Shown here: piece after piece, positions 10,811-41,708 of the stretch
How positions within the stretch are numbered: the stretch's first letter is position 1
Layout of the letters: each line of letters opens with the position of its first letter
Source: a virus
Taxonomy: Duplodnaviria; Heunggongvirae; Uroviricota; Caudoviricetes
DNA length: 64,000 nucleotides
Direction: 5' to 3' (one strand)
IMG/VR virus record: IMGVR_UViG_2706794668_000011
Notes under the pieces: model-generated
Seen by the model: only the letters and a program-made list of their open reading frames with translations
Told to the model about the DNA's origin: nothing
The model's database searches: none
Translations under genes and position numbers: made by a program

Positions 10811-10811
10811 T

Positions 10812-11225
10812 ATGGCAAGAGGTATGTATGTCTTATGCGAAATTGAAGGTGTGCTGGCAAATACCAGCCATCGTAAATCTGTACCTGACACGGATGCAGG
10901 CCAGCTCATTGCCGGTGATGAACTCATTTTCCCCACCAGCCGTATGTTGCGTGGTTTTGCTCGCTCAGGGGCTGAAGTGGTGCTTATCAGTAGCCGCTCT
11001 GAAACTCTTGAAGCGCCCACTAAACGATGGCTGAAAGATTTTGGCGTTGATTACGACTGGCTTCATCTCGTACCGAATGGCACCAGTTATGAGAAGCATA
11101 TTAAGCGCACATTAGCGGAGCATAAAGGCGATCTGCTTATCGCTGCGCTGGTGCACGATCCTCGACTCCGTGCCGCTTTAGCTGACTCTCATCATAGACC
11201 GGTCATCTATGAGGTGAGCAAATGA
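10812..11225 (+). CDS. hypothetical protein
   Basis: ATG directly after thyA stop; 3' end overlaps DHFR start; function not recognised. Confidence 0.45.
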   Translation: MARGMYVLCEIEGVLANTSHRKSVPDTDAGQLIAGDELIFPTSRMLRGFARSGAEVVLISSRSETLEAPTKRWLKDFGVDYDWLHLVPNGTSYEKHIKRTLAEHKGDLLIAALVHDPRLRAALADSHHRPVIYEVSK

Positions 11226-11698
11226 AGATGATAGCTGCTGTTGGCCGTAACTATGAGATCGGCATAGCGAACGAACTGCCCTGGCGTTGTTCTACCGATC
11301 TGAAGCTATTTAAGAGACTCACCAAAAACGCCACTGTCGTTATGGGGCGTAAAACGATGGAAAGTCTCAAACGCCCTCTTCCAGAGCGTCATAACCTCGT
11401 TTTGACGCGCTCTCATGGCTTTGTACCAAATGGATTCTACCCTGCTGGTGTGGATGATGTGTTGCGATTACCAGAGCCTGTGTGGGTGATTGGCGGGGAA
11501 CAAATTTACTCGCTATTCATGCCGCATGTTGAAGAGATTTGGCTCTCCCACATCGGCGTTGATGTGCCAAACGCCGATGCATTCTTCCCGGCAAGCATGA
11601 TGCGTAATTTAGGCTTTGTGCCTGTTGAAACAGTTTTTACCCAACGAGCCAGCGAGGAAGAGCCTGGCTTTTCGCAGATCGTATACAGAAGGTCGTAA
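11222..11698 (+). CDS. folA: dihydrofolate reductase
   Basis: 158 aa; pattern AAVGRNYEIG...LPW...VMGRKT...RPLPER...VIGG matches the DHFR fold and E. coli FolA. Confidence 0.9.
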   Translation: MKMIAAVGRNYEIGIANELPWRCSTDLKLFKRLTKNATVVMGRKTMESLKRPLPERHNLVLTRSHGFVPNGFYPAGVDDVLRLPEPVWVIGGEQIYSLFMPHVEEIWLSHIGVDVPNADAFFPASMMRNLGFVPVETVFTQRASEEEPGFSQIVYRRS

Positions 11699-12342
11699 TG
11701 GATTACCGGATTGGGATCACTGGTGCTCAGGGCAGTGGGAAAACAACCCTGGCAAAATATATCGACAAACATTACGGAATCCCTTACGTGGATGCTGGTG
11801 TCGGAAGTTTGATGAGCCGACTCGGTGTTCGAGTAGGTGAGTCTATGCCTCTATATGAGCGGCTTCAGATTCAAATGGAAATCGCAAAGCATATAGAGCT
11901 ACTTACGCGTGGTGTTGAAGGCTTTGTTATCGATCGCACACCTGCTGATGTTATGGCCTACACGTTGGATTTGGTCGGCCATACCAATGAAGATCGATGT
12001 ATTGAGTTAGCCCTCGATATCGAAAAGTTTTGCCACAAAACTGCTATTTCAAACTTTAACGCCATTGCTGGCCTACGCCCGGGAGTCGCTCTCTCAGAGC
12101 GAGATTACTTGCGATCACAACGAGCATCATTAGACCGTCTGTATGTCGCTCGTATTGATGCGTTGATGTGCGGGGAACTGACAAAAATTCACCTGCATCC
12201 GCAAAGGGGGGATCTGCAAACCTTCGTCGTTTCCAACCGATATCGCACGGTTGAAGCAAGAGCCAGATCAGTGATGAGAATGCTAGATAACGCTGTAGAA
12301 AAGATAGAAAACCGGTTCTGTGGTCGAGTGACCGTTCATTAG
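11698..12342 (+). CDS. P-loop nucleotide kinase-like protein (possible dNMP kinase)
   Basis: 214 aa; N-terminal Walker A GAQGSGKTT; context within the dNTP-synthesis module. Confidence 0.55.
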   Translation: MDYRIGITGAQGSGKTTLAKYIDKHYGIPYVDAGVGSLMSRLGVRVGESMPLYERLQIQMEIAKHIELLTRGVEGFVIDRTPADVMAYTLDLVGHTNEDRCIELALDIEKFCHKTAISNFNAIAGLRPGVALSERDYLRSQRASLDRLYVARIDALMCGELTKIHLHPQRGDLQTFVVSNRYRTVEARARSVMRMLDNAVEKIENRFCGRVTVH

Positions 12343-12403
12343 AAATTGTTCGCCTCTTCGACATTGCGACAATAAAACTCTCAAAATGGGTTAAGGATAA
12401 AAA

Positions 12404-22527: not shown

Positions 22528-23052
22528 ATGACTAAATTTGGAAAGCTGGAAGCTCATTTGCTAACTCGTAACTACCGCTATGATGTGCATCCATATAGAC
22601 AGTGGATCGATGAAAGCGAAGGAGTTGTTACATTCCCTCTATACAGGTTTGATGGGATGTTGGCCGGGTATCAGACATACAGACCAGGCGCTCCTAAGCA
22701 GCATAGCAATCCGAAGATGGCCCGGTATTTCACACGAGCGCACGGCAGACAGCTACTATGGGGAACCTATCTTCCTTTAAAAGATGGACCGATATGGATA
22801 ACTGAGTCGATTTTTAAAAGTGCAGCAGTGCACAACGCGGGCGGAAATTCGTGGGCGCTGTTAGGTTCGACTTTCTCAGCAGGATTACGTCGTCAACTGG
22901 CAATGCTGCCGTATGACTTTCGCGTAATAGGTGACAATGATGCGGCTGGTGAATCACTTGTGAAGTCTTTCGGAAAAGGTTTTGTGGCCCCGGATCTTGA
23001 CGAGCTACAACCAAATGAAGTGTCTCATTTGATTTTTAGCCATAGCCAATAA
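22528..23052 (+). CDS. hypothetical protein
   Basis: 174 aa from internal ATG. Confidence 0.45.
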   Translation: MTKFGKLEAHLLTRNYRYDVHPYRQWIDESEGVVTFPLYRFDGMLAGYQTYRPGAPKQHSNPKMARYFTRAHGRQLLWGTYLPLKDGPIWITESIFKSAAVHNAGGNSWALLGSTFSAGLRRQLAMLPYDFRVIGDNDAAGESLVKSFGKGFVAPDLDELQPNEVSHLIFSHSQ

Positions 23053-23089
23053 GCATCCCTTCTCCATTAAGGCCACTAGTTGTGGCCTT

Positions 23090-23112
23090 AAACAATTTGT
23101 TTTCTACCTTTT
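23090..23112. promoter_or_regulatory. motif A copy in reverse orientation (aaacaatttgttttctacctttt); left copy of a 23-bp direct repeat
   Basis: Identical 23-mer at 27028-27050. Confidence 0.6.
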
Positions 23113-23188
23113 CTTGTTCGAGAAAATAACGTTCCTTTGTCTGGTGCTATGTACCGATCAGTTGCACTGAGTGAGCTTCTTTCATGTA

Positions 23189-23208
23189 TACTGTGTAAAT
23201 GAACAGTA
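23189..23208. promoter_or_regulatory. LexA (SOS) box
   Basis: tactgtgtaaatgaacagta fits CTGT-N8-ACAG exactly; overlaps a plausible sigma70 promoter (ttgcac ... tgtata) 17 nt upstream of the UmuD'-like gene. Confidence 0.65.
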
Positions 23209-23224
23209 TTGAGGGCAAAACGCT

Positions 23225-23614
23225 ATGGGCTTCCCTTCTCCTGCGGCGGATTATGCTGAGAGCCGTATTTCTCTTGATCAGCAGATAATTAGACATCCTT
23301 CAGCGACCTACTTCATGAGAGCAGCTGATAGTCATCATCGTGAGGGAATATTACAGGGTGCATTGCTGGTGGTTGATTCCTCACTTACCCCGGTTGATGG
23401 TTCTCTGCTTGTATGCGCTCTGGATGGGGAATATCGCGTAAAAAGATACCGGAAGTCTCCACGTCAGCATCTGGAGGATTTAAGAACCGGTAAGAAGGAA
23501 GCATTGCCAAAGGATGACGATGGATGCACGGGCAGCAATGCCGTGTTTGGTGTGATCACTCACATTATCAACGACGCAAGAAGTGGCGAGTTTGATGATT
23601 GTCCTGTGATGTAG
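23225..23614 (+). CDS. UmuD'-like protein (pre-truncated UmuD homologue, HumD type)
   Basis: 129 aa beginning MGFPSPAADY, i.e. at the position of the UmuD Cys24-Gly25 self-cleavage site; shares HPSATYF and VFGVI motifs with UmuD; Ser/Lys dyad positions appear retained. Confidence 0.75.
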   Translation: MGFPSPAADYAESRISLDQQIIRHPSATYFMRAADSHHREGILQGALLVVDSSLTPVDGSLLVCALDGEYRVKRYRKSPRQHLEDLRTGKKEALPKDDDGCTGSNAVFGVITHIINDARSGEFDDCPVM

Positions 23615-23625
23615 GAGAACTGATT

Positions 23626-23651
23626 AGGCGGTGCAATGCACCGCCTTTTTA
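23626..23651 (+). terminator. rho-independent terminator
   Basis: aggcggtg/caccgcct hairpin followed by ttttt; lies 1 nt beyond the apbC stop on the other strand. Confidence 0.65.
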
Positions 23652-24752
23652 TCACACTGCGCGGAATGCGATTTCGCCAGGTATTACTTCACCTTGCCAA
23701 TACATTTGGGCAGCAACGCGATCTGCGAGGTCACGATAAATAGCCGTAAATTCGCTATCTGGACGACTAATAACGGTTGGTGTTCCGTTATCCAGATCTT
23801 CACGAAGAGAGATATGAAGTGGCATTTGGCCTAACAACTGCGTGTTGTATTTCTCGGCCAGTTTCTGTGCTCCACCGGTGCCAAAAATTGGCTCGTGATG
23901 ACCGCAGTTACTGCAAATATGCACACTCATGTTTTCAACGATACCCAGTACCGGCACTTCGACTTTTTCGAACATCACAATGCCTTTCTTCGCATCGATC
24001 AGCGCGATGTCTTGCGGCGTAGTTACCACAACCGCACCAGTTACAGGAATGTTCTGCGCCAGCGTCAATTGAATATCACCAGTGCCCGGTGGCATATCGA
24101 GAACGAGATAGTCCAGATCAGGCCACAGTGTTTCCTGCAACATCTGCATCAGCGCCTTGCTCGCCATCGGTCCACGCCACACCATTGCATTGTCATCGGT
24201 GACCAGATAACCAATAGAGTTGGTTGCCAGGCCATGAGACATGATAGGTGCCATGTGAGTACCGTCCGGTGAGGTTGGACGTTGGTTTTCCGCGCCCAGC
24301 ATGGTTGGAATTGATGGACCATAGATATCGGCATCCAAAATACCAACTTTCGCACCTTCAGCAGCCAAAGCCAGTGCCAAGTTTACTGCTGTGGAGGATT
24401 TACCCACGCCGCCCTTGCCTGAGCTGACGGCGATAATGTTCTTAACGCCATTAATGCCTGGTTGGTTTTTGACGCGCTTAAGCGTGGCAATGTTGTACGA
24501 CAGCTTCCAGTCAATAGCCTTTGCGCCAGTGATACGGAGCAGATCACCACTACATTGCTCTTTCAGGTCTTCAAAAGGCTTATTCCACACGAAAGGCATG
24601 ATTAGTTCGACATGCAGTGTGTCATCCATCAACGCAACATGGTGTAACGCTTTAAGCGTAGTCAAGTTGTGTTTCAGGGTTGGGTGCTGAAAATTAGCCA
24701 GCGTACCGGCTACCATTGCTCTCAGGGCATCCGGCGATTTGGACTCGCTCAT
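23652..24752 (-). CDS. apbC: Fe-S cluster carrier ATPase ApbC/Mrp, host-type
   Basis: 366 aa; very close match over the full length to enterobacterial Mrp as I remember it, including the deviant Walker A SGKGGVGKS and the CxxC motif. Confidence 0.9.
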   Translation of the reverse strand: MSESKSPDALRAMVAGTLANFQHPTLKHNLTTLKALHHVALMDDTLHVELIMPFVWNKPFEDLKEQCSGDLLRITGAKAIDWKLSYNIATLKRVKNQPGINGVKNIIAVSSGKGGVGKSSTAVNLALALAAEGAKVGILDADIYGPSIPTMLGAENQRPTSPDGTHMAPIMSHGLATNSIGYLVTDDNAMVWRGPMASKALMQMLQETLWPDLDYLVLDMPPGTGDIQLTLAQNIPVTGAVVVTTPQDIALIDAKKGIVMFEKVEVPVLGIVENMSVHICSNCGHHEPIFGTGGAQKLAEKYNTQLLGQMPLHISLREDLDNGTPTVISRPDSEFTAIYRDLADRVAAQMYWQGEVIPGEIAFRAV

Positions 24753-24909: not shown

Positions 24910-26943
24910 ATGACCCAAGTCGCGAAGAAAATTCTGGTGACGTGCGCGCTGCCGTACGCTAACGGCTCAATCCACCTCGGCCATATGCTGGAGCACATCC
25001 AGGCTGATGTCTGGGTTCGTTACCAGCGAATGCGCGGCCACGAGGTTAATTTCATCTGTGCCGACGATGCCCACGGTACGCCAATCATGCTGAAAGCACA
25101 GCAGCTTGGTATCACACCGGAACAGATGATTGGCGAAATGAGTCAGGAACATCAGACTGATTTCGCAGGCTTTAACATCAGCTATGACAACTATCACTCG
25201 ACGCACAGCGAAGAGAACCGTCAGTTGTCCGAGCTTATCTACTCTCGCCTGAAAGAAAACGGTTTTATTAAAAACCGCACCATCTCACAGCTGTACGATC
25301 CGGAAAAATGCATGTTCCTGCCGGACCGTTTTGTAAAAGGCACCTGCCCGAAATGTAAATCCCCGGATCAATACGGCGATAACTGCGAAGTCTGCGGCGC
25401 GACCTACAGCCCGACTGAATTGATCGAGCCGAAATCGGTGGTTTCTGGCGCTACGCCGGTAATGCGTGATTCTGAACACTTCTTCTTTGATCTGCCCTCT
25501 TTCAGCGAAATGTTGCAGGCATGGACCCGCAGCGGTGCGTTGCAGGAGCAGGTGGCAAATAAAATGCAGGAGTGGTTTGAATCTGGCCTGCAACAGTGGG
25601 ATATCTCCCGCGACGCCCCTTACTTCGGTTTTGAAATTCCGAACGCGCCGGGCAAATATTTCTACGTCTGGCTGGACGCGCCGATTGGCTACATGGGTTC
25701 TTTCAAGAATCTGTGCGACAAGCGCGGCGACAGCGTAAGCTTCGACGAATACTGGAAGAAAGACTCCACCGCCGAGCTGTACCACTTCATCGGCAAAGAT
25801 ATCGTTTACTTCCACAGTCTGTTCTGGCCTGCCATGCTGGAAGGCAGCAACTTCCGCAAGCCGACCAACCTGTTTGTTCACGGCTATGTGACGGTGAACG
25901 GCGCGAAGATGTCCAAGTCTCGCGGCACCTTTATTAAAGCCAGCACCTGGCTGAATCATTTTGACGCTGACAGCCTGCGTTACTACTACACTGCGAAACT
26001 CTCTTCGCGCATTGATGATATCGATCTCAACCTGGAAGATTTCGTTCAGCGCGTGAATGCCGATATCGTGAACAAAGTGGTTAACCTGGCCTCCCGTAAT
26101 GCAGGCTTTATCAACAAGCGTTTTGACGGCGTGCTGACAAGCGAACTGGCTGACCCGCAACTGTACAAAACCTTTACTGATGCCGCTGAAGTGATTGGCG
26201 AAGCATGGGAAAGCCGCGAATTTGGTAAAGCTATCCGTGAAATCATGGCATTGGCTGACCTGGCTAATCGCTATGTCGATGAACAGGCTCCGTGGGTGGT
26301 GGCGAAGCAGGAAGGTCGCGATGCAGATCTGCAGGCGATTTGCTCTATGGGCATTAACCTGTTCCGCGTGCTGATGACGTACCTGAAACCGGTACTGCCG
26401 AAACTGACTGAACGTGCAGAAGCATTCCTGAATACAGAACTGACCTGGGATGGTATCCAGCAACCGCTTCTGGGCCATAAAGTGAATCCGTTCAAGGCAC
26501 TGTATAACCGTATCGATATGAAACAGGTGGAAGCACTGGTGGAAGCATCCAAAGAAGAAGTGAAAGCCACAGCTGCACCGGTAACTGGCCCACTGGCTGA
26601 CGAACCGATTCAGGAAACCATCACCTTTGACGACTTCGCCAAAGTTGACCTGCGTGTGGCGCTGATTGAAAACGCGGAGTTTGTCGAAGGTTCTGACAAA
26701 CTGCTTCGCCTGACGCTGGATCTCGGTGGTGAAAAGCGTAATGTCTTCTCAGGCATCCGTTCCGCTTATCCAGATCCACAGGCACTGATTGGTCGTCACA
26801 CCATTATGGTGGCTAACCTGGCACCACGTAAAATGCGCTTCGGTATCTCTGAAGGCATGGTGATGGCTGCCGGTCCTGGCGGGAAAGATATCTTCCTGTT
26901 AAGCCCGGATGCTGGTGCTAAACCTGGCCACCAGGTTAAGTAA
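24910..26943 (+). CDS. metG: methionyl-tRNA synthetase, host-type
   Basis: 677 aa from [10 protein letters not shown]; HLGH and KMSKS motifs, zinc knuckle CPKCK...CEVCG, C-terminal tRNA-binding domain; near-identical to E. coli MetG as remembered. The track ORF starting at 24781 is an upstream in-frame extension. Confidence 0.95.
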
Positions 26944-26990: not shown

Positions 26991-27027
26991 ATATAGACAC
27001 AATCCCTCCTGATTTACACAAGCCCTA

Positions 27028-27050
27028 AAACAATTTGTTTTCTACCTTTT
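27028..27050. promoter_or_regulatory. motif A copy in reverse orientation; right copy of the 23-bp direct repeat
   Basis: aaacaatttgttttctacctttt identical to 23090-23112. Confidence 0.6.
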
Positions 27051-27074
27051 GTTGATTGAGATAATAAGCCACAT

Positions 27075-27094
27075 AAGAAAACAACTTGTTTTGG
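27075..27094. promoter_or_regulatory. motif A copy (aagaaaacaacttgttttgg)
   Basis: 11 nt upstream of ATG 27105. Confidence 0.6.
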
Positions 27095-27104
27095 AGTAGT
27101 TGAA

Positions 27105-27404
27105 ATGTTGAACATTACCCAAGCCTACCAGGTGGCATTGATCAGTTCATCTCATACATCAGAGGAAGATGCTCGCCGATTCATGATCGCAAGCAATGAG
27201 CTGGATTGGGTTTCACAAATTGAGTACGGTTGCATTGTCCACGCCGGGTTACAGGACGATGACTGGAAAGATGAGTTGCGTCGATATGGTATATCCGAGG
27301 GTGCGATTGCGAACATTCAGAAAGTACTTGATGTAGGCTTTAACTCTGTACATTTTGATTGTGGCGCACCGGTCGTTGAAGGGCTTGAGTGCTGGCAATG
27401 GTAA
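27105..27404 (+). CDS. hypothetical protein
   Basis: 99-aa ORF with RBS ggag. Confidence 0.5.
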   Translation: MLNITQAYQVALISSSHTSEEDARRFMIASNELDWVSQIEYGCIVHAGLQDDDWKDELRRYGISEGAIANIQKVLDVGFNSVHFDCGAPVVEGLECWQW

Positions 27405-27440
27405 TCCGGCAATCGCTTCATACTAGATAACGGAGAATTT

Positions 27441-27626
27441 ATGCTTAAAGAAGACTCATATCTACTAAAGGCGCTTGAAATGAGTGGCGTTGAACCTACA
27501 GTGAAAAACGCTCACGATATCTACCTTCAGTTTTCGACAGAGCTGAAACAGCTCATAAATAAATATGGAGTGAACGACTCCAGCGTCAAAGCCATGATAG
27601 ATGATGAATTAGACCATCTCATCTAA
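27441..27626 (+). CDS. hypothetical small protein
   Basis: 61-aa ORF with RBS cggag. Confidence 0.4.
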   Translation: MLKEDSYLLKALEMSGVEPTVKNAHDIYLQFSTELKQLINKYGVNDSSVKAMIDDELDHLI

Positions 27627-27749
27627 TCAAACCGTTGATAATGGCGGTCACAATTTGATTCTTTTCTATAAGAACCCGTTGATCGCCACTACTACCCTCC
27701 CATACCAGCAATCACATCATTAAATATCAATAGGTTATGGTTGTTTATA

Positions 27750-28500
27750 CCAATAAGAAAACAACTAAATAACAGATCAACGAAACATCAACGCTTTCTC
27801 CCGATTTGGTCTAAAAAATTGACGTTATCACACATCACTTCTTATACCCGTAATTCTACGCAGCAGATAGCGCCACAGCGTCCAAATTTCACCACAGACG
27901 ACTCAACACACTACCAACAAAAACACACGCTCAAAATCGCTCCCGTTGCGTTACACAACCATATAAACAACTTATTTTCAGGCATAACAAAACAACCAAA
28001 TAACACATATGCCATTACCCAAAACAACCAACCTCTTTATGGCAGGCTACCGAAAAGACCCACCTCTTCTCCCCAGGCTACCGGACAACCAACCTAACTT
28101 TCACAGGCAATCCGAAAACATTCATACGCGCGATACCCACGACACGCCATTACCCAAACAGCGAAGAAACACCTGAACCGCTGAAACCCTAACGAAGCCT
28201 GTAACCGCAAGGTTTCTCTCAATCCCAAAAGACACGAAACATAACAATCACGGGAAACGCCATTACCCAATACACGAATAACTACAAAAGCCTTCACACA
28301 CTCCAGACAAACAACTCAAACACAATAACGAAAGCAATCGCCCACCTGCCATTACTCCATACACGGAGAAGAACAATCACCAAAACGACGAGAACACCCC
28401 CATAGAAGAACCACCGCAAAACTAACGAAACCACATACACCGACAGAGAAAACAACACACCCAATTCACCAACAGAAATAGTCGCCGTATAGAACATTCT
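27750..28500 (+). repeat. ~750-bp AC-rich, G/T-poor low-complexity tract with dispersed short repeats; probably non-coding
   Basis: Strong strand compositional skew; gccattacccaa-type repeat at 28011, 28146, 28259 and 28349; aggctaccg-type repeat at about 28041, 28074 and 28104; ORFs here look like compositional artefacts. Confidence 0.6.
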
Positions 28501-28682
28501 GGAAGGAGTGAGCATTAACGCCTATAGAGAGGTTGAGACAGATAAAACACAACATGTATAGCGAAGAAGCCAGGTATGTATAAGTGGAGAGGGAAGGAGG
28601 GGGGTCGCCTCCTTTTTCGTATTTATTCAACTCCTGATTTTATCCCCCGTAACACCCCCTACGGTCAGCCTTCGGTCCATAC

Positions 28683-28821
28683 AGGGAAAAGGTTGCATCC
28701 AGCTACAGAAACGGCTGGGTTGCCTTCGGGGGAACGGCTGGGGATTTTCAGGGAAACGGTCGAGTTGCCTGTGTGGATTTCGGGAAAAGGCTCGATGCCG
28801 GTTCTGGAACGGCGGCGTACC
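28683..28821. repeat. iteron-like tandem array (six ~20-bp repeats at ~22-23-bp spacing)
   Basis: agggaaaaggttgcatcc / cagaaacggctgggttgcc / cgggggaacggctggggat / agggaaacggtcgagttgcc / cgggaaaaggctcgatgcc / ctggaacggcggcgtacc. Confidence 0.7.
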
Positions 28822-29193
28822 GGTATAGCGAGAGAGAGTTGCAGCTACCCACCTGTAATGTGCGGGAAGAAGAGAGGCGCTCACGTGCAGGCTGACTTGC
28901 TTACCGCTGGATTCCCTCTGAATGCCAGATACAGCGTAATTGTGCCAGACAGCCAGCGGGTCACAATCGATTTCAGTAGGTTTTCGGGGAGAGGATTATT
29001 CTACCCACCAGCCCCGCGGCGCGCGTAGAGCAGAATATCGTAAATACTGGCTCTCGTGTCGTTCCCGGATATTCACTGCCCAGCCTGGCTTTCCCGACAT
29101 AAAATCCTTTTTCGCCTTTATCTTATTGCGATAATAACACCAACAAGTAAACAGCATATTTAGACGTTATAGAAACGAAGTGAGGATGAAGAG

Positions 29194-29412
29194 ATGATTA
29201 AGATGCCTGTGACGGTTGAGGTGTGGGGCGTGGATTCCCTGGCTGAGTGTCTGGATGCAGTGGGGCCGGAGTTGTACCGCAAGTTGTGGTCGTTCGTCCC
29301 GGCAGAAGGGGAATCGCCCAAAGGGAAGGATATCTGGCACCTGCTGAGTGAAGATGAAAAGCGGGAGCTGGTGGGCGCGGTACACAGCGAGTTCCCGGAC
29401 GACCAAGATTAA
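29194..29412 (+). CDS. hypothetical small protein
   Basis: 72-aa ORF with RBS gagga. Confidence 0.45.
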   Translation: MIKMPVTVEVWGVDSLAECLDAVGPELYRKLWSFVPAEGESPKGKDIWHLLSEDEKRELVGAVHSEFPDDQD

Positions 29413-29482
29413 GAGTGAGGCCACCAGCACGGTGGCTTTTGTCGCTATTAACCTCGGGGCAGCGCAGCACCGTAACGATATA

Positions 29483-29542
29483 CTTTGTGGCCGTTTTCTT
29501 ACTGGTATTGTTTACGTAATTCAGAAAACAACATGTTTAAGG
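29483..29542 (+). promoter_or_regulatory. promoter-operator cassette, copy 1 (putative -35 ttgtgg, -10 tattgt, then motif A)
   Basis: ~60-bp direct repeat of 29968-30027 (~85 percent identical); motif A cagaaaacaacatgtttaa at 29522-29540. Confidence 0.55.
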
Positions 29543-29550
29543 ATTGCTTT

Positions 29551-29880
29551 ATGTTTGCAAATATCGACATCAACCAAATTAAGAAATTGACTCAAAAAGA
29601 GTTTGACCAGTTTTATGAGCTGGAAGGTTGGTCTTCCACTCTGATTAATTCAAGATGGGTGCTGGAGCTGATGACTCGTGATGACGCACCTGCTTTGATG
29701 ATTTGCGACATGGGTGAAGATGCTGACTTTATGGATATGAGCGAATTTTGTGTGGACACATACAACCGCAGCCAGAAGTACTACTTCACATGCGATAGCG
29801 AAAATGACGTGATTTCTAAGGTCTATCTTCACCTCGTCCAGCATTGGGACGTTCAGGACTTCCTTGCGATATTCGCGTAA
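29551..29880 (+). CDS. hypothetical protein
   Basis: 109 aa from ATG preceded by aagga. Confidence 0.5.
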   Translation: MFANIDINQIKKLTQKEFDQFYELEGWSSTLINSRWVLELMTRDDAPALMICDMGEDADFMDMSEFCVDTYNRSQKYYFTCDSENDVISKVYLHLVQHWDVQDFLAIFA

Positions 29881-29967
29881 GCCCAACCAAAGCCAGCATT
29901 GCTGGCTTAACTTCATCTGTAGCCGCAGGGAAGAACCTGCATATCGCTCATGCGCCTGATCAATATG

Positions 29968-30027
29968 CTTTGTAGCCGTTTTCTTACTGGTATTATTTAC
30001 GCCATTGAGAAAACAAGTTGTTTACGG
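29968..30027 (+). promoter_or_regulatory. promoter-operator cassette, copy 2 (putative -35 ttgtag, -10 tattat, then motif A)
   Basis: Direct repeat of 29483-29542; motif A gagaaaacaagttgtttac at 30008-30026. Confidence 0.55.
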
Positions 30028-30034
30028 AGTTGTG

Positions 30035-30346
30035 ATGAAAAAATCATTGGTTCTTGGTCTGGACAAAGACCAGAAGAGAAAAGAGAAGCCTGCACTGGTT
30101 GCTCAATTAACTTTGCTGGACATCGTTGCCAATGGAACCTCTATTCGTCTGTTCCGTGAAACAGCGGTGTCTTTCGATAAAAACACCTTTACTCGTTATG
30201 TAATGAATGTTCGTCGCCAGCGTGGAAAAGGCTGGATGGCATTTCAAAGAATGTGGCCGGAACATCAGCTCGAACTGGCTTTGATGGAAGTTAACCGCGT
30301 GGCCCAGCAAGAGATTCAGAGAGCATCAGTGATGGCAATAGCCTGA
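30035..30346 (+). CDS. hypothetical protein
   Basis: 103 aa from ATG preceded by ggag. Confidence 0.5.
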   Translation: MKKSLVLGLDKDQKRKEKPALVAQLTLLDIVANGTSIRLFRETAVSFDKNTFTRYVMNVRRQRGKGWMAFQRMWPEHQLELALMEVNRVAQQEIQRASVMAIA

Positions 30347-30471
30347 TAATGTGCAAGTGGTAATTAGTCGACAGTACGACAGCCCCGCCATCCTTACGGG
30401 GTTTTTTGTATTGTAAGTACATACCTATGTCTATAAAATAGAAAAATAACCAAGACACTATGGAGAGTGAT

Positions 30472-30867
30472 ATGAGCGTTAAACGAGAAAACCTGACAGT
30501 TGATGTCTACTATGCTTCAGAAAGCGCCGAAGGTAAGAATGTAGCTAAAATCACCGTCGTTACGTACAACACCGAAACTGGAACTGAAGTTCAGGCAAGT
30601 ACTATTGTGCGTAAAGGAGATACATCAGGCGGGGAATATGAGGCGCAATATCAGTCCATTTTTGATGCAACGGACCCGTTGTTGTTGAAAATTGAAAGTT
30701 ACTTCCGTAAGGTGAATAAAGAGGTGTTTGAAACCATGATGAATATGGTTAACACCGTATTCGCTTCCAGTCTGAACACTAACACTACCTGGATTGGTCA
30801 GTATGGTCTGCGCATTACCTCCGGCATTCCTGCTGACACCTTAATCCCTGAAAGCGTATTCGCTTAA
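30472..30867 (+). CDS. hypothetical protein
   Basis: 131 aa from ATG preceded by ggagag. Confidence 0.5.
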   Translation: MSVKRENLTVDVYYASESAEGKNVAKITVVTYNTETGTEVQASTIVRKGDTSGGEYEAQYQSIFDATDPLLLKIESYFRKVNKEVFETMMNMVNTVFASSLNTNTTWIGQYGLRITSGIPADTLIPESVFA

Positions 30868-30876
30868 TCCTCTTTG

Positions 30877-30905
30877 AATGGCGCGTAAACCGCGCCATTT
30901 TCTTA
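30877..30905 (+). terminator. rho-independent terminator
   Basis: aatggcgcg/cgcgccatt stem followed by ttcttatg. Confidence 0.7.
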
Positions 30906-30911
30906 TGCCCG

Positions 30912-30931
30912 ATAACAATTTGTTTTCTGCC
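30912..30931. promoter_or_regulatory. motif A copy in reverse orientation (ataacaatttgttttctgcc)
   Basis: 55 nt upstream of ATG 30986. Confidence 0.55.
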
Positions 30932-30985
30932 TTATCTGATTTGTGAAAATGCTTTCACTGAAAGCAACTTGATAAGGAAACCATC

Positions 30986-31360
30986 ATGGGACTTGATATC
31001 TACATTGAGACGCAACCAAAAAACGATCTGAATAACGATGCATCCAGAAAGAAGGTTGCTTACTTCCGTAAGTTCAATGCTCTCTTTGGGTGGATGGAAC
31101 GCAACGTAGGTGAAGTCAAAAATTGTGAGCTTTTAGAATTAACGATGAATGACATTTGTGCTCTGAAAGCTCATTTGATGCACATGAACGAAAGTAACTG
31201 CGAAGAGTACTTACCTACCTGTGAAGGTTTTTTCTTCGGCAGTCAGGAGTACGATGAAGGGTACTGGCATGACGTGGGGGAGTTGAAAAAACTTGTGGAA
31301 GAGCTGATTAAGAACCACGACTTTCACAATAACAGACTGACCTTCTGCGCCTGGTGGTAA
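30986..31360 (+). CDS. hypothetical protein
   Basis: 124-aa ORF with RBS aagga. Confidence 0.5.
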   Translation: MGLDIYIETQPKNDLNNDASRKKVAYFRKFNALFGWMERNVGEVKNCELLELTMNDICALKAHLMHMNESNCEEYLPTCEGFFFGSQEYDEGYWHDVGELKKLVEELIKNHDFHNNRLTFCAWW

Positions 31361-31362
31361 AT

Positions 31363-31506
31363 ATGGGCGATTTCAAGAAACGCCTGAAGGAAAGAGCCGA
31401 GATAGTCAGAAAGCAAAACGCCTCTTCTGTCATCAGATACGCAAGGCAGTTTAGTCGCAACAACAAATCAGTTGAGGAAAAGATCCTTAGCGTAATCGGT
31501 CGATAA
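31363..31506 (+). CDS. small basic protein (47 aa), not in ORF track
   Basis: ATG 2 nt after upstream stop; Arg/Lys-rich; followed by a strong hairpin at 31512-31536. Confidence 0.3.
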   Translation: MGDFKKRLKERAEIVRKQNASSVIRYARQFSRNNKSVEEKILSVIGR

Positions 31507-31554
31507 TTATTAAGGCCACCACTGCTGGTGGCCTTAAATGACCATCCTGTTTCC

Positions 31555-31633
31555 CGCAGGCTAAAAACACCAACCTCTTACCTCCAGGCAACCGACAAAC
31601 CCACCTGTTCCCGTCCGGCTACCGCAACTTTCC
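31555..31633. repeat. second iteron-like family (aggc-t/a-accg-type units, ~30-bp spacing)
   Basis: aggctaaaaacacc / aggcaaccgacaaac / cggctaccgcaactt; same family as repeats at about 28041-28120. Confidence 0.55.
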
Positions 31634-31672
31634 ACTTTGACGCCTTATTCGTACAACGATAATTAACGCCAA

Positions 31673-31693
31673 CAAGAAAACAATTTGTTATTT
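31673..31693. promoter_or_regulatory. motif A copy (caagaaaacaatttgttattt)
   Basis: 18 nt upstream of ATG 31711. Confidence 0.55.
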
Positions 31694-31710
31694 ACGATAA
31701 GGAATTAATC

Positions 31711-32193
31711 ATGAATTTTATCGCTACTGTAAACGCACCCGCACATGGCAATATCGCTGTAACGTTCTCTGACATTGAAAAACGAGTACTTGGTGCATGG
31801 CGCGACAATGAGACGGTAGAACTGTCAGCACAAGAAAAATGCATTATTGCACGCGACATCATTGGCAATCGTCGTTACTCGCGGGTATTTGAGAAAGCGT
31901 ATGTGGTAAATTCTGGATTCGGAACGTTCGTCTTTCCGGTGCGCTCCGGGCGATTCTGCCAGTCCAAGCTGATTGAGTTCGCTACGCAGATTTCTGTCTG
32001 GATTAAAACTCAATCGTCGTTCAAATTTTCCGACGATGAAGCAGTATCGCAGGGGATGCGGATCGCCAACAATGCAATTAAATGCAAAAACATTACGTAT
32101 ACCGCTGGCGTTGATACATGGAAACTGTTTTGCGCTAACTTTATGCTGAATGTATACGCAAGCAACCGCATCCACATCCTTGATGGTGTGTAA
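31711..32193 (+). CDS. hypothetical protein
   Basis: 160-aa ORF with RBS aagga. Confidence 0.5.
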   Translation: MNFIATVNAPAHGNIAVTFSDIEKRVLGAWRDNETVELSAQEKCIIARDIIGNRRYSRVFEKAYVVNSGFGTFVFPVRSGRFCQSKLIEFATQISVWIKTQSSFKFSDDEAVSQGMRIANNAIKCKNITYTAGVDTWKLFCANFMLNVYASNRIHILDGV

Positions 32194-32202
32194 CTGAGAA
32201 GA

Positions 32203-32225
32203 GGGCCAGTAACGGCCCTTTCTCT
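32203..32225 (+). terminator. rho-independent terminator
   Basis: gggcc/ggccc stem followed by tttctct. Confidence 0.6.
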
Positions 32226-32242
32226 ATAGCCACCAGATGCCG

Positions 32243-32329
32243 CAGGGAAATTTTCAGAAACGGCGAGGAACGTATTCATGAACCGACGGGGAACGGCCAG
32301 GATTTTTTCGGGAAACGGCTGCATTCGCC
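32243..32329. repeat. second array of the gggaaacgg-type iteron family
   Basis: cagggaaattttc / cagaaacggcgaggaacg / cggggaacggccaggatt / cgggaaacggctgcattcgcc; homologous to units at 28683-28821. Confidence 0.65.
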
Positions 32330-32593
32330 TTTATGTAGAAAAAACATCGGGAAGCTGGTGGAATCCAACCAGCGGTTGTCGGACAGGTGAGCGGGGAAAA
32401 TTATGATGACTTTCGTCGCCTGAGACATCCAGATTTCTTTCGTAGCGTAATCGCATACGTGATTAAGTGGTGTGATTATGTGAAAAATCACGCGCACATA
32501 ATACGCGAGCGGATACGGAACAAAACAAAATGCCGATCCGCGCCGACAAATAAACGCGGATCACATAGCAAGACTAAAAGCCAATGATTAACT

Positions 32594-32808
32594 ATGCGCT
32601 ATAGCGCAATATAACGCGTTTTAAGCGCGTTAATGTGTTAAGTAATGGGTATGTACTGGCAAGGATATAAAAGCGCGTCTATGGCGTTATTTTGGCGCTT
32701 ATTTTTATGTTGTTGGAGTGAGTCAAAGACAATAAAAAACGCGCCATCATTGGCGCGTTATGGTGGGAGTATTGGAAACGAAAAAAGCGCCCACTATGGG
32801 CGCTATTG
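32594..32808. repeat. cluster of short GCGC-core hairpins in AT-rich DNA
   Basis: tgcgcta/tagcgca 32594-32607; aacgcg/cgcgtt 32614-32632; aacgcgcca/tggcgcgtt 32738-32760; agcgccca/tgggcgct 32786-32804 (flanked by A- and T-runs, terminator for the minus-strand gene ending at 32812); a near-identical hairpin recurs at 33281-33301. Confidence 0.6.
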
Positions 32809-32811
32809 TTT

Positions 32812-33039
32812 TTATTTTTCTAAGCGAATATTAAAACCAGCGTTTAAAAATTCTTGAAGCATTAAAGTAACATCTGCTTCATTGATTCCTGCGCGCGCTC
32901 TATGTTCTACGTCATTGATGTTTATTTTAAACGTTGTTTCATCAACCACTTCAGAACTTAGAGCATATCCAGCTAAACCAGCAATATCATAAACAAGAGT
33001 ATGATTATTGATATTTACGCCAGAGATGAAAATAACCAT
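32812..33039 (-). CDS. hypothetical small protein
   Basis: 75-aa ORF with canonical RBS aaggag 8 nt upstream on the minus strand. Confidence 0.45.
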   Translation of the reverse strand: MVIFISGVNINNHTLVYDIAGLAGYALSSEVVDETTFKININDVEHRARAGINEADVTLMLQEFLNAGFNIRLEK

Positions 33040-33059
33040 GATTAAGCTCCTTAAAAAAA

Positions 33060-33263
33060 TTAAATAGAATTATGAAGTTTTCCGATTAATGCGCTTAAAC
33101 GTAAGTATTCACGTTTACGCTTGCAATCTCGTTTGCTGTTAAGCAAATCAGAAAACGTAAAATTTAATTGGTCGCGTTGCGCGATTAAATCATTGATTAA
33201 TTCTAGTTTATAAGCGCGATACTTTGCGCGATATTCCGCGCGGATCTTGTCATAGCTGACCAT
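33060..33263 (-). CDS. hypothetical small basic protein
   Basis: 67-aa ORF with canonical RBS aaggag; Lys/Arg-rich and helical in character. Confidence 0.45.
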   Translation of the reverse strand: MVSYDKIRAEYRAKYRAYKLELINDLIAQRDQLNFTFSDLLNSKRDCKRKREYLRLSALIGKLHNSI

Positions 33264-33312
33264 TTTTTAAAGCTCCTTTAAAGCGCCCATAGTGGGCGCT
33301 TGATTCCATTAA

Positions 33313-33963
33313 TTACGCTTTGAAAGCGTCAGCTAGATAATTGTAGAAATCATTCTTGATAAAGCGATATTGCTGTGTACCAGCTTTGGCGCTTCCCATT
33401 CCTTTGACTTTCTCAACAAGTCCGAGACGTTCGCAAAGATTGATTAGCTGGTTAGCTTGAGTATAGCCAGCGTCCAATTTAATTTCACACGCTTTTTTAG
33501 CTTCATTCATTAAATCGAAAACAGCGCCATTCGTGAACGTGTCGATCTCGTCGTTAATCATATCGATTAAAGCGAATACACGAGATCCAGACATATCAGC
33601 GACGGAATAAACACATTTTCCAGCTTTAATTGATTTAACCAGATAAACCAGTTTTTCCAGTGAATAACTATTAGTCATAGCGTCACGAAAAAATACTTCT
33701 GGCGCTTGTTTGCTTGCTTTAATCGCATAGTAGAAAACAGAGCATAATTTTTCGTCTTCTACAGCGTTTACGACGTTGTTGATGAAGTAAGCAAGTTTAG
33801 TGGTCGCAGCTTGCATATTTGCTTTGTCTGCTTTAGTGTGCGTACCATTTTTATAATGTTCGTTATATGTTTGAGTTGCCAGATCTGCTTTTTCGCGCAG
33901 TTCGTCGGATACAATAGATGCAGCTTCAATGATGGACTTTTTAGAAATGATAATGTTAGCCAT
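33313..33963 (-). CDS. hypothetical protein
   Basis: 216-aa ORF with RBS aagga. Confidence 0.5.
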   Translation of the reverse strand: MANIIISKKSIIEAASIVSDELREKADLATQTYNEHYKNGTHTKADKANMQAATTKLAYFINNVVNAVEDEKLCSVFYYAIKASKQAPEVFFRDAMTNSYSLEKLVYLVKSIKAGKCVYSVADMSGSRVFALIDMINDEIDTFTNGAVFDLMNEAKKACEIKLDAGYTQANQLINLCERLGLVEKVKGMGSAKAGTQQYRFIKNDFYNYLADAFKA

Positions 33964-34216
33964 GATTTTATTCCTTAGTATAAATATTAAAATTTAACTC
34001 AAGAAAGAAAGTGTTTTGCACTCGTTCCTGATGCGTTCAATTATCGATACGCGAAAAAAGATTGCAAGTGTTTTTTTAAGTTTTTTTGCAGGGATGAAAG
34101 TCCTAGAAATAAATGTTAGATCGTCGAGGGTGTTCCCTAAATAAATAATCGATTCCGGCTTTAGACCTTATATATTTATACGGGGTAGAATTGAAAGAGT
34201 ATAAAATGAATGGCAT

Positions 34217-34260: not shown

Positions 34261-34782
34261 TTAAAACGGAAGGATTCGTTCAACCCAATCGAAGAAAATA
34301 AGTATTTTTCTACCGTCTTCCAACTTAAGTGTGACTAGACAGGCGTCAACGCCATCTGACGTTCCCTCAATTTCGCGACCGTCTGCCATGTAGACCCTTA
34401 TAGATTTGCCGTTTTGGTAAGCCTGACGACATATCTTAAAAAAGTCACGACGTGATGGCTGATTAACCATCTGTTCATTGTTTAGCGTTAGTCGACCTGT
34501 GAATGAAGTGTCAACCTCTTCTATGCCCGACTCAATTGTGCTAATGCGCTCAAGAGGGAGCCTTATACGATTTGTGTTGCTAAGCGGATCTGGTGTGAGG
34601 TTCAGCTTATTTCTTGCGCTCAATAGCCCGTAGACATACATGCAAAACACTTGGCCGTCTTCGAGAGTGACTCTTACAGGAAATTTTGCACTCCGCCAGA
34701 AGAGCAAGGTACGTTCAGCATGTTCGTAGTCTCGCGGCCATACTTCAGCCGGTATGCCGTAGGTGATGTCCAATGTTCTCAT
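34261..34782 (-). CDS. hypothetical protein
   Basis: 173-aa ORF; 4-nt overlap with upstream gene suggests co-translation. Confidence 0.5.
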   Translation of the reverse strand: MRTLDITYGIPAEVWPRDYEHAERTLLFWRSAKFPVRVTLEDGQVFCMYVYGLLSARNKLNLTPDPLSNTNRIRLPLERISTIESGIEEVDTSFTGRLTLNNEQMVNQPSRRDFFKICRQAYQNGKSIRVYMADGREIEGTSDGVDACLVTLKLEDGRKILIFFDWVERILPF

Positions 34783-41075: not shown

Positions 41076-41708
41076 ATGACGGTCGAAAAAGACGAGGTAA
41101 AAACTCGCCTGACACCAGCGGAGTGGGCCGAAGCTGAAGCCAAATGGACGTCAGGCGAATATACACTCTCAAAGCTGGAGGAAGAGTACGGCATTCGTCG
41201 TGAAACACTCTCCAGACATTTCAAAAAGCGAGGATTAGAGAAAGGCGCGGACTCTGTTGGGAAGATGGTTCGTGAGTCTCTTAAATCTGACGCAGAGCTT
41301 CGCGCTAAAGCCCGTGCGGAAAAGATAGAAGAACGTCGTACACGTTATGACGGCTGGGCGTATGCGTTGGGGCAGATGGTGATGGTCGAAGTCACTACGG
41401 CCAAACGTGAGGGTAAGCCTTTAGGGGCGATTGAGGATTCTCTCAAGAGCTTACAGAGAGCCAGTAATACTCTTGCAAAATGCTTTGAAGTTTCGTCCAA
41501 AGCATTGGGCATGGATCATGCGGAAAATGACGAGGAAGAAATTCCGAACCTGGTATTTGGTGAGCTTACGCCTTCCCAGGTGGCGAAATTACGTCAGGAA
41601 GACGACGAGCCTGAAATCATCGATGACGAATTGCTTGAGACGTTGGAAGAAGAAGCTCTAAGCGAATTTGATGCGACAGATGATGGAAGTGAAGGGGAGG
41701 ACGAATAA
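41076..41708 (+). CDS. terminase small subunit (putative)
   Basis: 210 aa; N-terminal HTH-like segment, acidic C-terminus; immediately precedes the large terminase. Confidence 0.65.
   Translation: MTVEKDEVKTRLTPAEWAEAEAKWTSGEYTLSKLEEEYGIRRETLSRHFKKRGLEKGADSVGKMVRESLKSDAELRAKARAEKIEERRTRYDGWAYALGQMVMVEVTTAKREGKPLGAIEDSLKSLQRASNTLAKCFEVSSKALGMDHAENDEEEIPNLVFGELTPSQVAKLRQEDDEPEIIDDELLETLEEEALSEFDATDDGSEGEDE

Follow-up and report, generated by a model that had tools for sequence, protein, structure and literature searches.

Phased direct repeats around a block of small early genes in an SSU5-type phage-plasmid are conserved independently of the plasmid replicon and possibly serve the phage phase

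Phage P4 possesses a two-part origin, composed of ori and crr and bound by the alpha primase-helicase (octamer TGTTCACC). In the replicons of P1 (oriR/incA), F (ori2/incC) and RepFIB, two arrays of direct repeats in a 21-23-bp register flank rep, and are accompanied by DnaA boxes and AT/GATC-rich 13-mers. Lytic origins of the lambda type contain four to six phased O-protein iterons, placed inside the O gene beside an AT-rich region and used in the lytic phase only; lambdoid initiators read iterons via an N-terminal DNA-binding domain. Arrays of short direct repeats, bound cooperatively, are also found in R1 parC/ParR, TubR/tubC and N15 sopC, the centromeres of N15 being dispersed among its phage genes. 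At the RNA level, the sponge RNAs CsrB and RsmZ are long untranslated molecules with repeated short motifs, built of hairpins, and rut regions are C-rich, G-poor and unstructured.

The DNA analysed here (the window, 64,000 nt) represents a phage-plasmid of the SSU5/pHCM2 type, 99% identical to Escherichia phage CMS-2020a. It is most closely related to circular plasmids of ~107 kb and to phage-plasmids of the SSU5 type, which bears out the original prediction that the element is a plasmid-type prophage; the predicted absence of an integrase was confirmed as well. Apart from integrase, homologues of RepA and ParA, and iterons of the Rep type, were also missing from the window. The Cyrano annotation includes a helicase, a primase, Pol III alpha and epsilon, a gp32-like SSB, UvsW, UvsY and RecA homologues, and lists no lytic origin. 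Two families of repeats and an A+C-rich tract (Table 1), all exceeding chance expectation, are kept in 838 PLSDB plasmids of gut bacteria (E. coli, Klebsiella, Salmonella, Enterobacter, Kluyvera and Buttiauxella).

Table 1. Features of the repeat region and its surroundings, in window coordinates
Feature	Position	Strand	Remarks
Conserved 5' non-coding domain	27630-27860	+	begins immediately behind the upstream gene's stop codon
A+C-rich, G/T-poor tract	27860-28490	+	holds family-2 array 1 and four GCCATTACyCmATACACGGAGAAGAAC-type motifs
Family-2 array 1	28021-28117	+	three 30-31-nt direct repeats, unit ACCnACCTCTT-n5-CAGGCTACCGAAAAG; conserved among relatives
Conserved hairpin, followed by a T-run in the window's lineage	28585-28618	+	terminator scan; terminator or 3' end of the putative A+C-rich transcript
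Family-1 array 1	28683-28821	+	six iteron-like units, core (G/C)(G/A)G(A/g)AA(C/A)GG(C)
Six small early genes	29194-31506	+	29194-29412, 29551-29880, 30035-30346, 30472-30867, 30986-31360, 31363-31506
Hairpin AAGGCCACCACTGCTGGTGGCCTT	31512-31535	+	ends the preceding gene; read off the sequence; kept in most relatives
Family-2 array 2	31535-31628	+	three 28-30-nt units, immediately before the promoter/operator of the 160-aa gene
Gene of the 160-aa protein	31711-32193	+	family-specific; between family-2 array 2 and family-1 array 2
Terminator hairpin of the 160-aa gene	32196-32224	+	
Family-1 array 2	32243-32329	+	good cores at 32257, 32290 and 32312 (spacing 33, 22); weak copy at 32246
Terminators of the opposite strand	32534-32563, 32738-32759, 32786-32804	-	terminator scan
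Gene of the 216-aa protein	33313-33963	-	N-terminal helical hairpin and C-terminal winged helix; highly conserved in the family

Family 1 is built on a 10-nt core, GGGAAACGGC, recurring in a 22-bp register in six copies in the first array and three to four in the second. On the + strand, the GRAAMGG cores of array 1 lie at 28686, 28708, 28731, 28753, 28784 and 28806, with spacings of 22, 23, 22, 31 and 22 bp; the six units predicted previously are all present. The second array exists too, with three good copies and a weak one in place of the four units expected. Pairs of cores exactly 22 bp apart were found four times in the window, compared with 0.00 in 100 shuffles. Across at least nine lineages and 50 distinct array sequences the cores were kept and the spacers diverged; in the 50 sequences, the spacing was most often 22 bp (138 times), followed by 31 bp (27), 42/44 bp (17) and 21/23 bp (5). 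The core is asymmetric and its register corresponds to about two (22 bp) or three (31-34 bp) helical turns, so that the description of the two arrays as iteron-like remains valid. In the distant variant L019 the spacings are 10, 12, 24 and 26 bp, again near whole helical turns. Relatives differ in array 1 by unit-sized indels of 23 nt, which rules out a conserved ORF there, and no sign of covariation within the arrays was detected by RNAalifold (covariation term +1.27 kcal/mol), leaving an RNA structure there unsupported. The two arrays, of 58-59% GC, are 3.5 kb apart. Each of them immediately follows a terminator hairpin and occupies a gap between transcription units, which in the case of array 2 are convergent.

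Family 2 also forms two clusters, as predicted, each of three units of about 30 nt (at 28021, 28052 and 28082, and at 31535, 31563 and 31593). Its consensus, ACCNACCTNTTN5CNGGCWA, was matched seven times against 0.13 expected; six of these matches make up both arrays and the remaining one is a chance match in metG. The arrays align with each other at ~75% identity over 90 nt. In L019 the element ACCnACCTCTT is changed to ACCACCCAAAC in both arrays together, as would be expected if one co-evolving factor reads both. Throughout the Cyrano genome, clusters of either family are confined to these two loci.

The same order (family 2, ~600 bp, hairpin, family 1) is present twice, and the unit-sized indels are a sign of replication slippage. 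Both observations would suit relics of an old segmental duplication that are by now neutral or selfish tandem repeats devoid of function. We consider this reading highly improbable, as cores and register were preserved across genera and in hundreds of plasmids despite divergence of the spacers, the units of L019 changed jointly, and a compact phage genome has retained 1.57 kb of non-coding DNA.

The region had been put forward as a candidate plasmid replication or partition locus, whose initiator might be either a small hypothetical protein or a product of a gene outside the window. In Shigella plasmid CP104415 (99.8% identical), the Rep gene is located ~0.7-1.9 kb before the window start, and the initiator was therefore not recognizable only because its gene is just beyond that border. 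Around this gene lie at least 12 iterons (ACCGCTGACAGCATA), together with a DnaA box and 13-mers rich in GATC; the Rep origin of Cyrano also contains a DnaA box and GATC 13-mers, with RepA iterons of a different type (CTCTATAGTGGAT). Between Cyrano and the window's lineage, Rep shares 50% protein identity and the iterons are unrelated in sequence, while families 1 and 2 are ~95% identical and unlike both iteron types. Since Rep and its iterons co-vary between lineages and the two families remain constant, the latter are not Rep iterons. The repeats are conserved, with their spacing, independently of the Rep/iteron module. No Rep initiator gene adjoins the arrays or lies between them, no DnaA box (up to one mismatch) was found in 27000-34000 and no AT-rich unwinding element beside the arrays, and the 160-aa protein enclosed by them matches no known fold, Rep-like folds included.

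Maintenance in lysogeny could also involve a second replicon, incA-like sites of Rep handcuffing, or dispersed centromeres resembling those of N15. The 22-bp register and the placement of two arrays around a gene block resemble P1, F and RepFIB, and family 1 has the spacing of iteron-controlled replicons (17-22-bp repeats in a register of ~2 turns). Moreover, tandem genes with ParB_N domains are located ~6 kb downstream, and in Cyrano the surroundings of parA revealed no clear direct-repeat centromere. However, the complete origin, with Rep, iterons, DnaA box and GATC 13-mers, resides elsewhere, unlike in those replicons, and Cyrano ParA is encoded at 29.3 kb, ~65 kb from the arrays, near a long palindrome which is a likelier centromere. 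The arrays share with known direct-repeat centromeres the arrangement in two clusters, but have no adjacent gene of a partner NTPase and adjoin no parA/parB operon active in lysogeny. In an LF82 (Cyrano) lysogen, features over the arrays and the winged-helix gene were at the detection floor and repA was expressed; expression of the six-gene block was low or at the floor, and that of the ParB_N genes at the floor (PMC9928086, S1 table). The region is therefore silent at the time when partition is needed. With the Rep origin and ParA located elsewhere, a plasmid replication or partition locus is unsupported, and a maintenance function of the arrays appears very unlikely. They might nevertheless constitute an additional origin for the phage mode, or an accessory centromere.

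In our view, the repeats are most likely protein-binding DNA sites used in the lytic phase, and the arrays are possibly a lytic origin or enhancer. In the reading that we prefer, though tentatively, both families are cis-acting elements of a phage-phase part of the genome silent in lysogeny, and family 1 provides the phased protein-binding sites of a phage-mode origin or enhancer. Protein binding, the identity of the binder and a role in replication are what we infer from this arrangement. Family 1 would offer phased sites to a DNA-binding protein that is sequence-specific and produced after induction. By binding cooperatively and head to tail along one face of the helix, this protein could form two nucleoprotein complexes capable of pairing by looping. 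By analogy to P4 ori/crr, the paired complexes might act as the origin or enhancer of phage-mode replication, carried out by the element's own replisome of DnaB-type helicase, primase and Pol III. P4 is likewise able to live as a plasmid and has two clusters of direct repeats several kilobases apart, with repeated asymmetric cores, which we propose to be read here, too, by one phage protein. The P4 octamer is, however, unrelated in sequence to the repeats described here, and no primase-helicase resembling alpha, with a DNA-binding domain to match, was identified. The number of phased repeats and, as proposed, their restriction to the lytic phase are shared with lambda-type origins, but the arrays studied here are intergenic, GC-rich and outside any initiator gene.

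The phased repeats are accompanied by a winged-helix gene that is silent in lysogeny and lies ~1 kb from family-1 array 2. Its product, a 216-aa protein with a coiled coil and a winged helix, is our best candidate for the binder of the arrays. Of the products of the region, for which a search for Rep-like winged-helix folds had been suggested, the 160-aa protein showed no such fold; in the 216-aa protein a winged helix was recognized, as a generic fold match, and a Serratia homologue is encoded with no arrays nearby. TubR, itself a winged-helix protein, was among the fold matches.

Proteins of this kind (MarR/ArsR/PadR-like) are usually transcription regulators, and the arrays of family 1, and perhaps of family 2, could accordingly be operator-like or insulator sites for such a phage protein, with no role in replication. 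When bound, arrays situated after terminators would prevent read-through or silence the early promoters next to them, and family-2 array 2 would act from upstream on the promoter of the 160-aa gene, as a set of activator or repressor sites. This array is indeed positioned at about -120 to -30 relative to the GATAAT box of that gene, terminator hairpins immediately precede both family-1 arrays, and the small early genes are individually controlled: most genes of the block, which match only PHROG families of unknown function and no Pfam entry above the cut-off, possess a -10 box (GATAAT) of their own as well as a palindromic operator, AAAACAAnTTGTTTT. On the other hand, this operator differs from the repeats and already serves the early promoters, the family-1 core is asymmetric, whereas palindromes are the normal targets of proteins of the MarR type, and six sites arranged head to tail in a constant 22-bp register 3' of transcription units would be unusual operators. 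We find a purely regulatory role rather unlikely.

The A+C-rich tract raises the question of a function at the RNA level. Its existence, predicted for ~750 bp (27750-28500), was confirmed, with the bias strongest from ~27850: the 630 bp of the tract contain 40.3% A, 33.3% C, 12.4% G and 14.1% T (74% A+C), and A+C amounts to 70-78% in each 100-nt window between 27850 and 28450. This bias is kept in SSU5, in elements of Klebsiella, Enterobacter, Salmonella, Kluyvera and Buttiauxella, and in a distant K. quasipneumoniae variant. Motifs of the GCCATTACCCAA type occur in it at 28011, 28146, 28259 and 28348 (five matches against 1.03 expected). The tract has no conserved reading frame and its predicted RNA is almost unstructured. 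Six lineages retain the 12-pair stem of the hairpin that follows, by way of G-U and compensatory changes, in agreement with an RNA of the + strand. The tract is thus probably the body of a separate, unstructured early non-coding RNA of ~0.8 kb, ending at this hairpin, and family 2 and the GCCATTAC motifs would be repeated recognition sites, in or beside this RNA, for some factor.

It could further be assumed that the repeats act at the RNA level, the sequence 27627-28620, with read-through into the arrays, forming an early non-coding RNA or UTR which titrates an RNA-binding protein by means of family 2, GCCATTAC...ACACGGAG and perhaps family 1. Candidate binders would be host Hfq, host Rho, as the putative RNA is C-rich, G-poor and untranslated in the manner of rut regions, and the element's own translational repressor of the FljA type (34261-34782). 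The latter is a full-length homologue (PF03614, E 1e-68) with weak Sm/Hfq-like similarity, conserved across the family, including elements of Klebsiella and Y. pestis; these hosts are non-motile. The strand-asymmetric composition conserved across genera, the hairpin retained at the 3' end and the 9-mer ACCCAATAC, common to the tract motif and the E. coli fliC leader, are in favor of this possibility, and in several relatives the hairpin terminating the 160-aa gene shares its loop and 3' arm with an overlapping family-1 core (CAGAAACGG). However, expression of the region in the lysogen is at the floor, no consensus sigma-70 promoter was predicted for the tract, both family-1 arrays are behind terminators and lack covariation, and a fixed 22/31-bp register suits the geometry of DNA better. 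Similarity to CsrB-type sponges is limited to the repeated short motifs of a putative long untranslated RNA, which, unlike them, is predicted to be unstructured, is not enriched in GGA (seven against 4.5 expected) and gave no match. At gathering score Rfam 15 had none anywhere in the window, and in 27400-32900 only sub-threshold ones, all in a cluster of terminator-like hairpins at 32731-32818. A titrating RNA of this kind is, in our opinion, doubtful.

The 5' domain preceding the tract contains five GTTGAY words, at 27633 and 27677 (+), at 27776 and 27787 (-), and as TTGACG at 27819, together with nested inverted repeats: TATAAGA (27667) and TCTTATA (27840), CGTTGAT and ATCAACG, and AAACATCAAC and GTTGACGTT. 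These elements may be protein sites or part of an RNA structure. RNAalifold nested three helices in the domain, with a few compensatory and G-U changes, and with mismatches too. The words are invariant or nearly so across 53 sequences, and in most relatives AAACGTCAAC replaces AAACATCAAC.

Comparison of the region at 27600-32400 with known phages revealed 99.1% identity to Escherichia phage CMS-2020a; for PhiR41_1 and for Cyrano, the phage-plasmid pLF82 of strain LF82, the figure is 94-98%. Parts of the region have matches in Klebsiella phage-plasmids and in Salmonella phage SSU5. When 27630-28900 was used as a query, 838 PLSDB plasmids were found to carry the region, mostly at 65-75% identity, in Klebsiella, Escherichia, Enterobacter, Salmonella, Citrobacter and Cronobacter hosts; in nearly all of them it bears no annotation. 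On the basis of these phage and plasmid matches, the sequence identifies the element as an SSU5/pHCM2-type phage-plasmid. The original prediction of a plasmid-like prophage devoid of an integrase is borne out, as the closest PLSDB match is a circular Shigella sonnei plasmid of 107,358 bp (99.8%) and the window contains no integrase homologue. Elements of this type are common in clinical E. coli, Klebsiella, Salmonella and Enterobacter, and are reported to carry antibiotic-resistance genes. A divergent pair of host-type genes, encoding an Mrp/ApbC-like ATPase (23652-24752, - strand) and a full-length methionyl-tRNA synthetase (metG, 24910-26943, + strand), has a GC content of 50-52% versus about 45% in the surroundings and is annotated in Cyrano and PhiR41_1 too; it seems to represent host DNA that was captured.

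Both repeat families noticed at the outset proved to be real. Four pairs of family-1 cores at a distance of 22 bp occur in the window versus 0.00 in shuffles, the family-2 pattern has seven matches versus 0.13 expected, and in the whole Cyrano genome clusters of both kinds are confined to these two loci. A lone family-2-like match with one mismatch (25864-25886, within metG) is an isolated chance match outside any array. The family-1 profile, built from 71 units of nine lineages, has an asymmetric core, (G/C)(G/A)G(A/g)AA(C/A)GG(C), and information-poor spacers. For array 1, of which PLSDB and IMG/VR yielded 50 distinct versions, mostly with six copies, the spacing is 22 bp in 138 cases, 31 bp in 27, 42/44 bp in 17 and 21/23 bp in five; in array 2 it is held at 33/34 and 22 bp. 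A distant variant from K. quasipneumoniae retains the core at spacings of 10, 12, 24 and 26 bp. We found no account of these repeats, or of any lytic origin, in the literature searched on SSU5-type elements.

Coordinates of the repeats, operator-like palindromes and parts of the non-coding stretch (window positions)
Feature	Position	Strand	Remarks
5' domain	27630-27860		GTTGAY present five times, invariant; nested set of three inverted repeats
A+C-rich tract	27860-28490		A 40.3, C 33.3, G 12.4, T 14.1%
Family 2, 30-nt unit	28021-28117; 31535-31628		three copies in each array
Purine-rich segment	between A+C-rich tract and hairpin		100 nt
Hairpin	28585-28618		retained in all lineages; followed by a T-run in the window's lineage
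Family-1 cores (GRAAMGG), array 1	28686, 28708, 28731, 28753, 28784, 28806	+	last part of the non-coding stretch, after the hairpin
Family-1 cores (GRAAMGG), array 2	32257, 32290, 32312	+	
AAAACAAnTTGTTTT palindrome	7407, 17623, 18352, 23089, 27027, 27078, 27964, 29525, 30010, 30912, 31677, 35806, 40997, 41022		

The first arrays lie in a non-coding stretch of 1,567 bp (27627-29193), of great length by phage standards and conserved across the SSU5-type family. Read as RNA, the putative helices of its 5' domain nest and show a few compensatory changes, with recurrent mismatches. The A+C-rich tract contains the first family-2 array, the motif GCCATTACyCmATACACGGAGAAGAAC and four GCCATTAC-type motifs. 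The hairpin that follows is retained through G-U and compensatory changes, a pattern explicable only for + strand RNA. A coding function of family-1 array 1 or of the tract was rejected, as stop-free stretches match between lineages in pieces of only 20-30 aa, in every frame and on both strands, and indel lengths are not divisible by three; in the array, indels the size of a unit (PhiR41_1, for example, lacks 23 nt) preclude a conserved reading frame. A second module has a like order: a hairpin (31512-31535), family-2 array 2, a promoter with operator, the gene of a 160-aa protein, a terminator hairpin (32196-32224) and family-1 array 2. In Y. pestis pMT1 the second module alone is retained, beside a copy of IS1541, and the genes that in Cyrano separate it from the RuvC-like gene are missing. 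A packaging (pac/cos) site was considered unlikely, with terS 8.7 kb away at 41076-41705.

The plasmid replicon was found to lie elsewhere. In the Cyrano annotation RepA occupies 60.6-61.7 kb, ParA lies at 29.3 kb, and the repeat region corresponds to 94.3-99.1 kb. Cyrano RepA has 21-bp iterons CTCTATAGTGGAT on both sides, together with DnaA boxes and GATC-rich 13-mers, and by sequence this is a textbook RepFIB/P1-type origin. The window starts inside the SbcD-like gene directly downstream of the Rep module (window position 913 corresponds to Cyrano 63832) and contains no RepA or ParA homologues and no Rep-type iterons; the suggestion that a Rep gene might be situated outside the window was thus correct, as in relatives the module is found just before the window start. 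In CP104415, a near-identical Shigella plasmid, the Rep gene (22858-24072; 50% identical to Cyrano RepA) is encircled by at least 12 iterons of a different sequence, ACCGCTGACAGCATA, and accompanied by a DnaA box and GATC 13-mers. The Rep modules of CP104415 (22279-22857 and 24073-24273) and Cyrano (10100-12400 in the Cyrano piece L010) occupy the same genomic slot and are typed in PLSDB as rep_cluster_488 and IncFIB, respectively. Such divergence of Rep and iterons in one slot suggests, at the level of sequence, that incompatibility groups turn over inside one phage lineage.

Rep and its own iterons have thus co-evolved between the two lineages, whereas the family-1, family-2 and A+C-rich regions remained about 95% identical. 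This is the strongest argument for placing the repeats outside the plasmid replicon and its copy control: they are unrelated in sequence to the Rep iterons and do not co-vary with Rep. DnaA boxes and an AT-rich element are absent beside the arrays. Expression in the LF82 lysogen points in the same direction. CYRAN_103/104, which lie over the tract and array 1, and the winged-helix gene CYRAN_113 are at or near the detection floor, the block's remaining small genes show low expression, and repA is expressed well (PMC9928086, S1 table). The proposal that repeats flanking small genes form a plasmid-type replication or partition region is therefore contradicted on the several independent counts given above, and the repeats should not serve for plasmid-replicon annotation or typing, or as incompatibility determinants.

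A 15-bp palindrome, AAAACAAnTTGTTTT, occurs in about 14 copies in the window. As a rule a copy directly follows a (TGn)GATAAT -10-like box and precedes, by 10-20 nt, a small gene's ribosome-binding site. The palindrome resembles a dispersed operator of the prophage master repressor, comparable to the scattered C1 operators of P1, and such a role would account for the silence of the whole block in lysogeny.

What, then, might the repeats do? We tentatively propose that they are putative phased protein-binding DNA sites that would operate during the phage phase; the most plausible role is that of a two-part origin or enhancer comparable to P4 ori/crr. This reading is favoured by the presence of phased, conserved repeats, shielded from transcription, in a genome segment that is off in the lysogen, and by the Cyrano annotation, in which a full replisome and T4-like recombination proteins are listed and a lytic origin is not. 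Our confidence is kept low by the lack of an AT-rich unwinding element beside the arrays, by the failure to find an initiator and by the presence of another origin-like palindrome beside helicase genes. The latter, an 18-bp perfect inverted repeat GACCTGCTTCTGTATATA / TATATACAGAAGCAGGTC with an AT-rich centre, separates CYRAN_30 from CYRAN_31, ahead of the helicase and primase genes (31157-31213 in the Cyrano piece L009), and is a rival candidate, either as centromere or as lytic origin. Family-1 array 2 sits between convergent transcription units. We give a purely regulatory or insulator role of the arrays a low probability, not far below that of our preferred reading. In the gap between convergent units at 32450-32820, dense hairpins with GCGC stems are found, three terminator-like on the - strand and one bidirectional (32786-32804); sub-threshold Rfam matches to MicX, Hrs1 and STnc350 at 32731-32818 probably reflect mere terminator resemblance.

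A role at the RNA level has about the same low probability as the regulatory one. The family-1 spacings are all near whole helical turns, as would suit proteins aligned along one side of the DNA better than a function as RNA, and RNAalifold found no covariation in these arrays that would support a conserved RNA structure. For family 2, whose unit is C-rich and G-poor with a period of 28, 30, 31 or 36 nt depending on array and lineage, the data are compatible with a reader of either DNA or RNA, if there is any. In the distant variant half of the unit, ACCnACCTCTT, is replaced by ACCACCCAAAC in both arrays in concert, which points, as judged from sequence, to a shared trans-acting reader or to gene conversion. 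If protein-binding arrays are the right reading, the repeats would be iteron-like protein-binding arrays, a known type of element. Its 1.57 kb of conserved non-coding sequence, with phased arrays, a strongly strand-biased tract and a lysogeny-silent winged-helix gene as neighbour, makes the region a concrete, testable candidate for a lytic origin or its control; at minimum, it is a clean marker of the SSU5-type family.

The 216-aa protein encoded at 33313-33963 (- strand) is among the most conserved in the region. Its model (pLDDT 83) has a long N-terminal helical hairpin and, C-terminal to it, a classic winged helix. The 160-aa protein, confined to the SSU5-type family and confidently modelled (pLDDT 85), resembles no solved structure. 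The winged-helix protein of the distant K. quasipneumoniae variant is 53% identical to that of the window. A homologue from a small Serratia plasmid is 63% identical and has no arrays within 14.6 kb, so a tie between this protein and family 1 by co-occurrence was not established. None of the small proteins of the block has a Pfam match above the curated cut-off, their PHROG matches are all of unknown function, and the sole Pfam match above cut-off in the set is DUF5983, in the flanking 99-aa gene (27105-27404).

A separate problem is the A+C-rich tract, best read as a distinct, untranslated and nearly unstructured predicted RNA. Its C-rich, G-poor composition is that preferred by Rho. A CsrA sponge was rejected: GGA occurs seven times in array 1 versus 4.5 expected and three times in the 641-nt tract, and Rfam gave no match. 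The product of the gene at 34261-34782 (- strand) is homologous to FljA over its full length (PF03614, E 1.4e-68) and shows a weak LSM/Hfq-like similarity; the gene is kept across the SSU5-type family, Klebsiella and Y. pestis elements included. Salmonella FljA is a translational repressor of fliC mRNA that targets the fliC leader; as Klebsiella and Y. pestis are non-motile, the target of the homologue in their elements is probably not flagellin. The main repeated motif of the tract, GGGAAACGCCATTACCCAATACACG (28250-28275), and the E. coli K-12 fliC 5' leader GGTGGAAACCCAATACGTAATC (331-353, - strand, of the fliC region L011) have in common the 9-mer ACCCAATAC and, near it, GGAAAC. This likeness may be due to chance; it is notable with an FljA homologue encoded 6 kb away. 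Both the Rho-like composition and the shared 9-mer are leads, not findings. A combined scheme would have the 1.57-kb region produce an early, G/U-poor, nearly unstructured lncRNA of about 0.8-1 kb, whose motifs (family 2, GCCATTAC...ACACGGAG) act as a decoy or sponge for host Rho or Hfq or for the element's own FljA-type repressor; separately, the family-1 arrays would define a two-part lytic origin, to be recognised by a novel initiator of the winged-helix type. We regard it as improbable; a sponge RNA is the more novel reading but less likely than protein-binding arrays.

A core like that of family 1 was also met in an unrelated high-GC phage (L105, IMG/VR UViG 3300046714_000194), where at least six copies of GGGAAACGG, one of them inverted, lie at 1540-1680 (- strand). 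About six non-SSU5 matches to GGGAAACGG were obtained in total, close to the chance estimate, and homology with family 1 was not inferred; the common core is probably coincidental. The copies are placed directly downstream of a 413-aa ORF whose translation reads as a putative RecA-fold/RepA-like helicase with a C-terminal winged helix, and by sequence this phage would be a clear case of iterons beside a replication gene.
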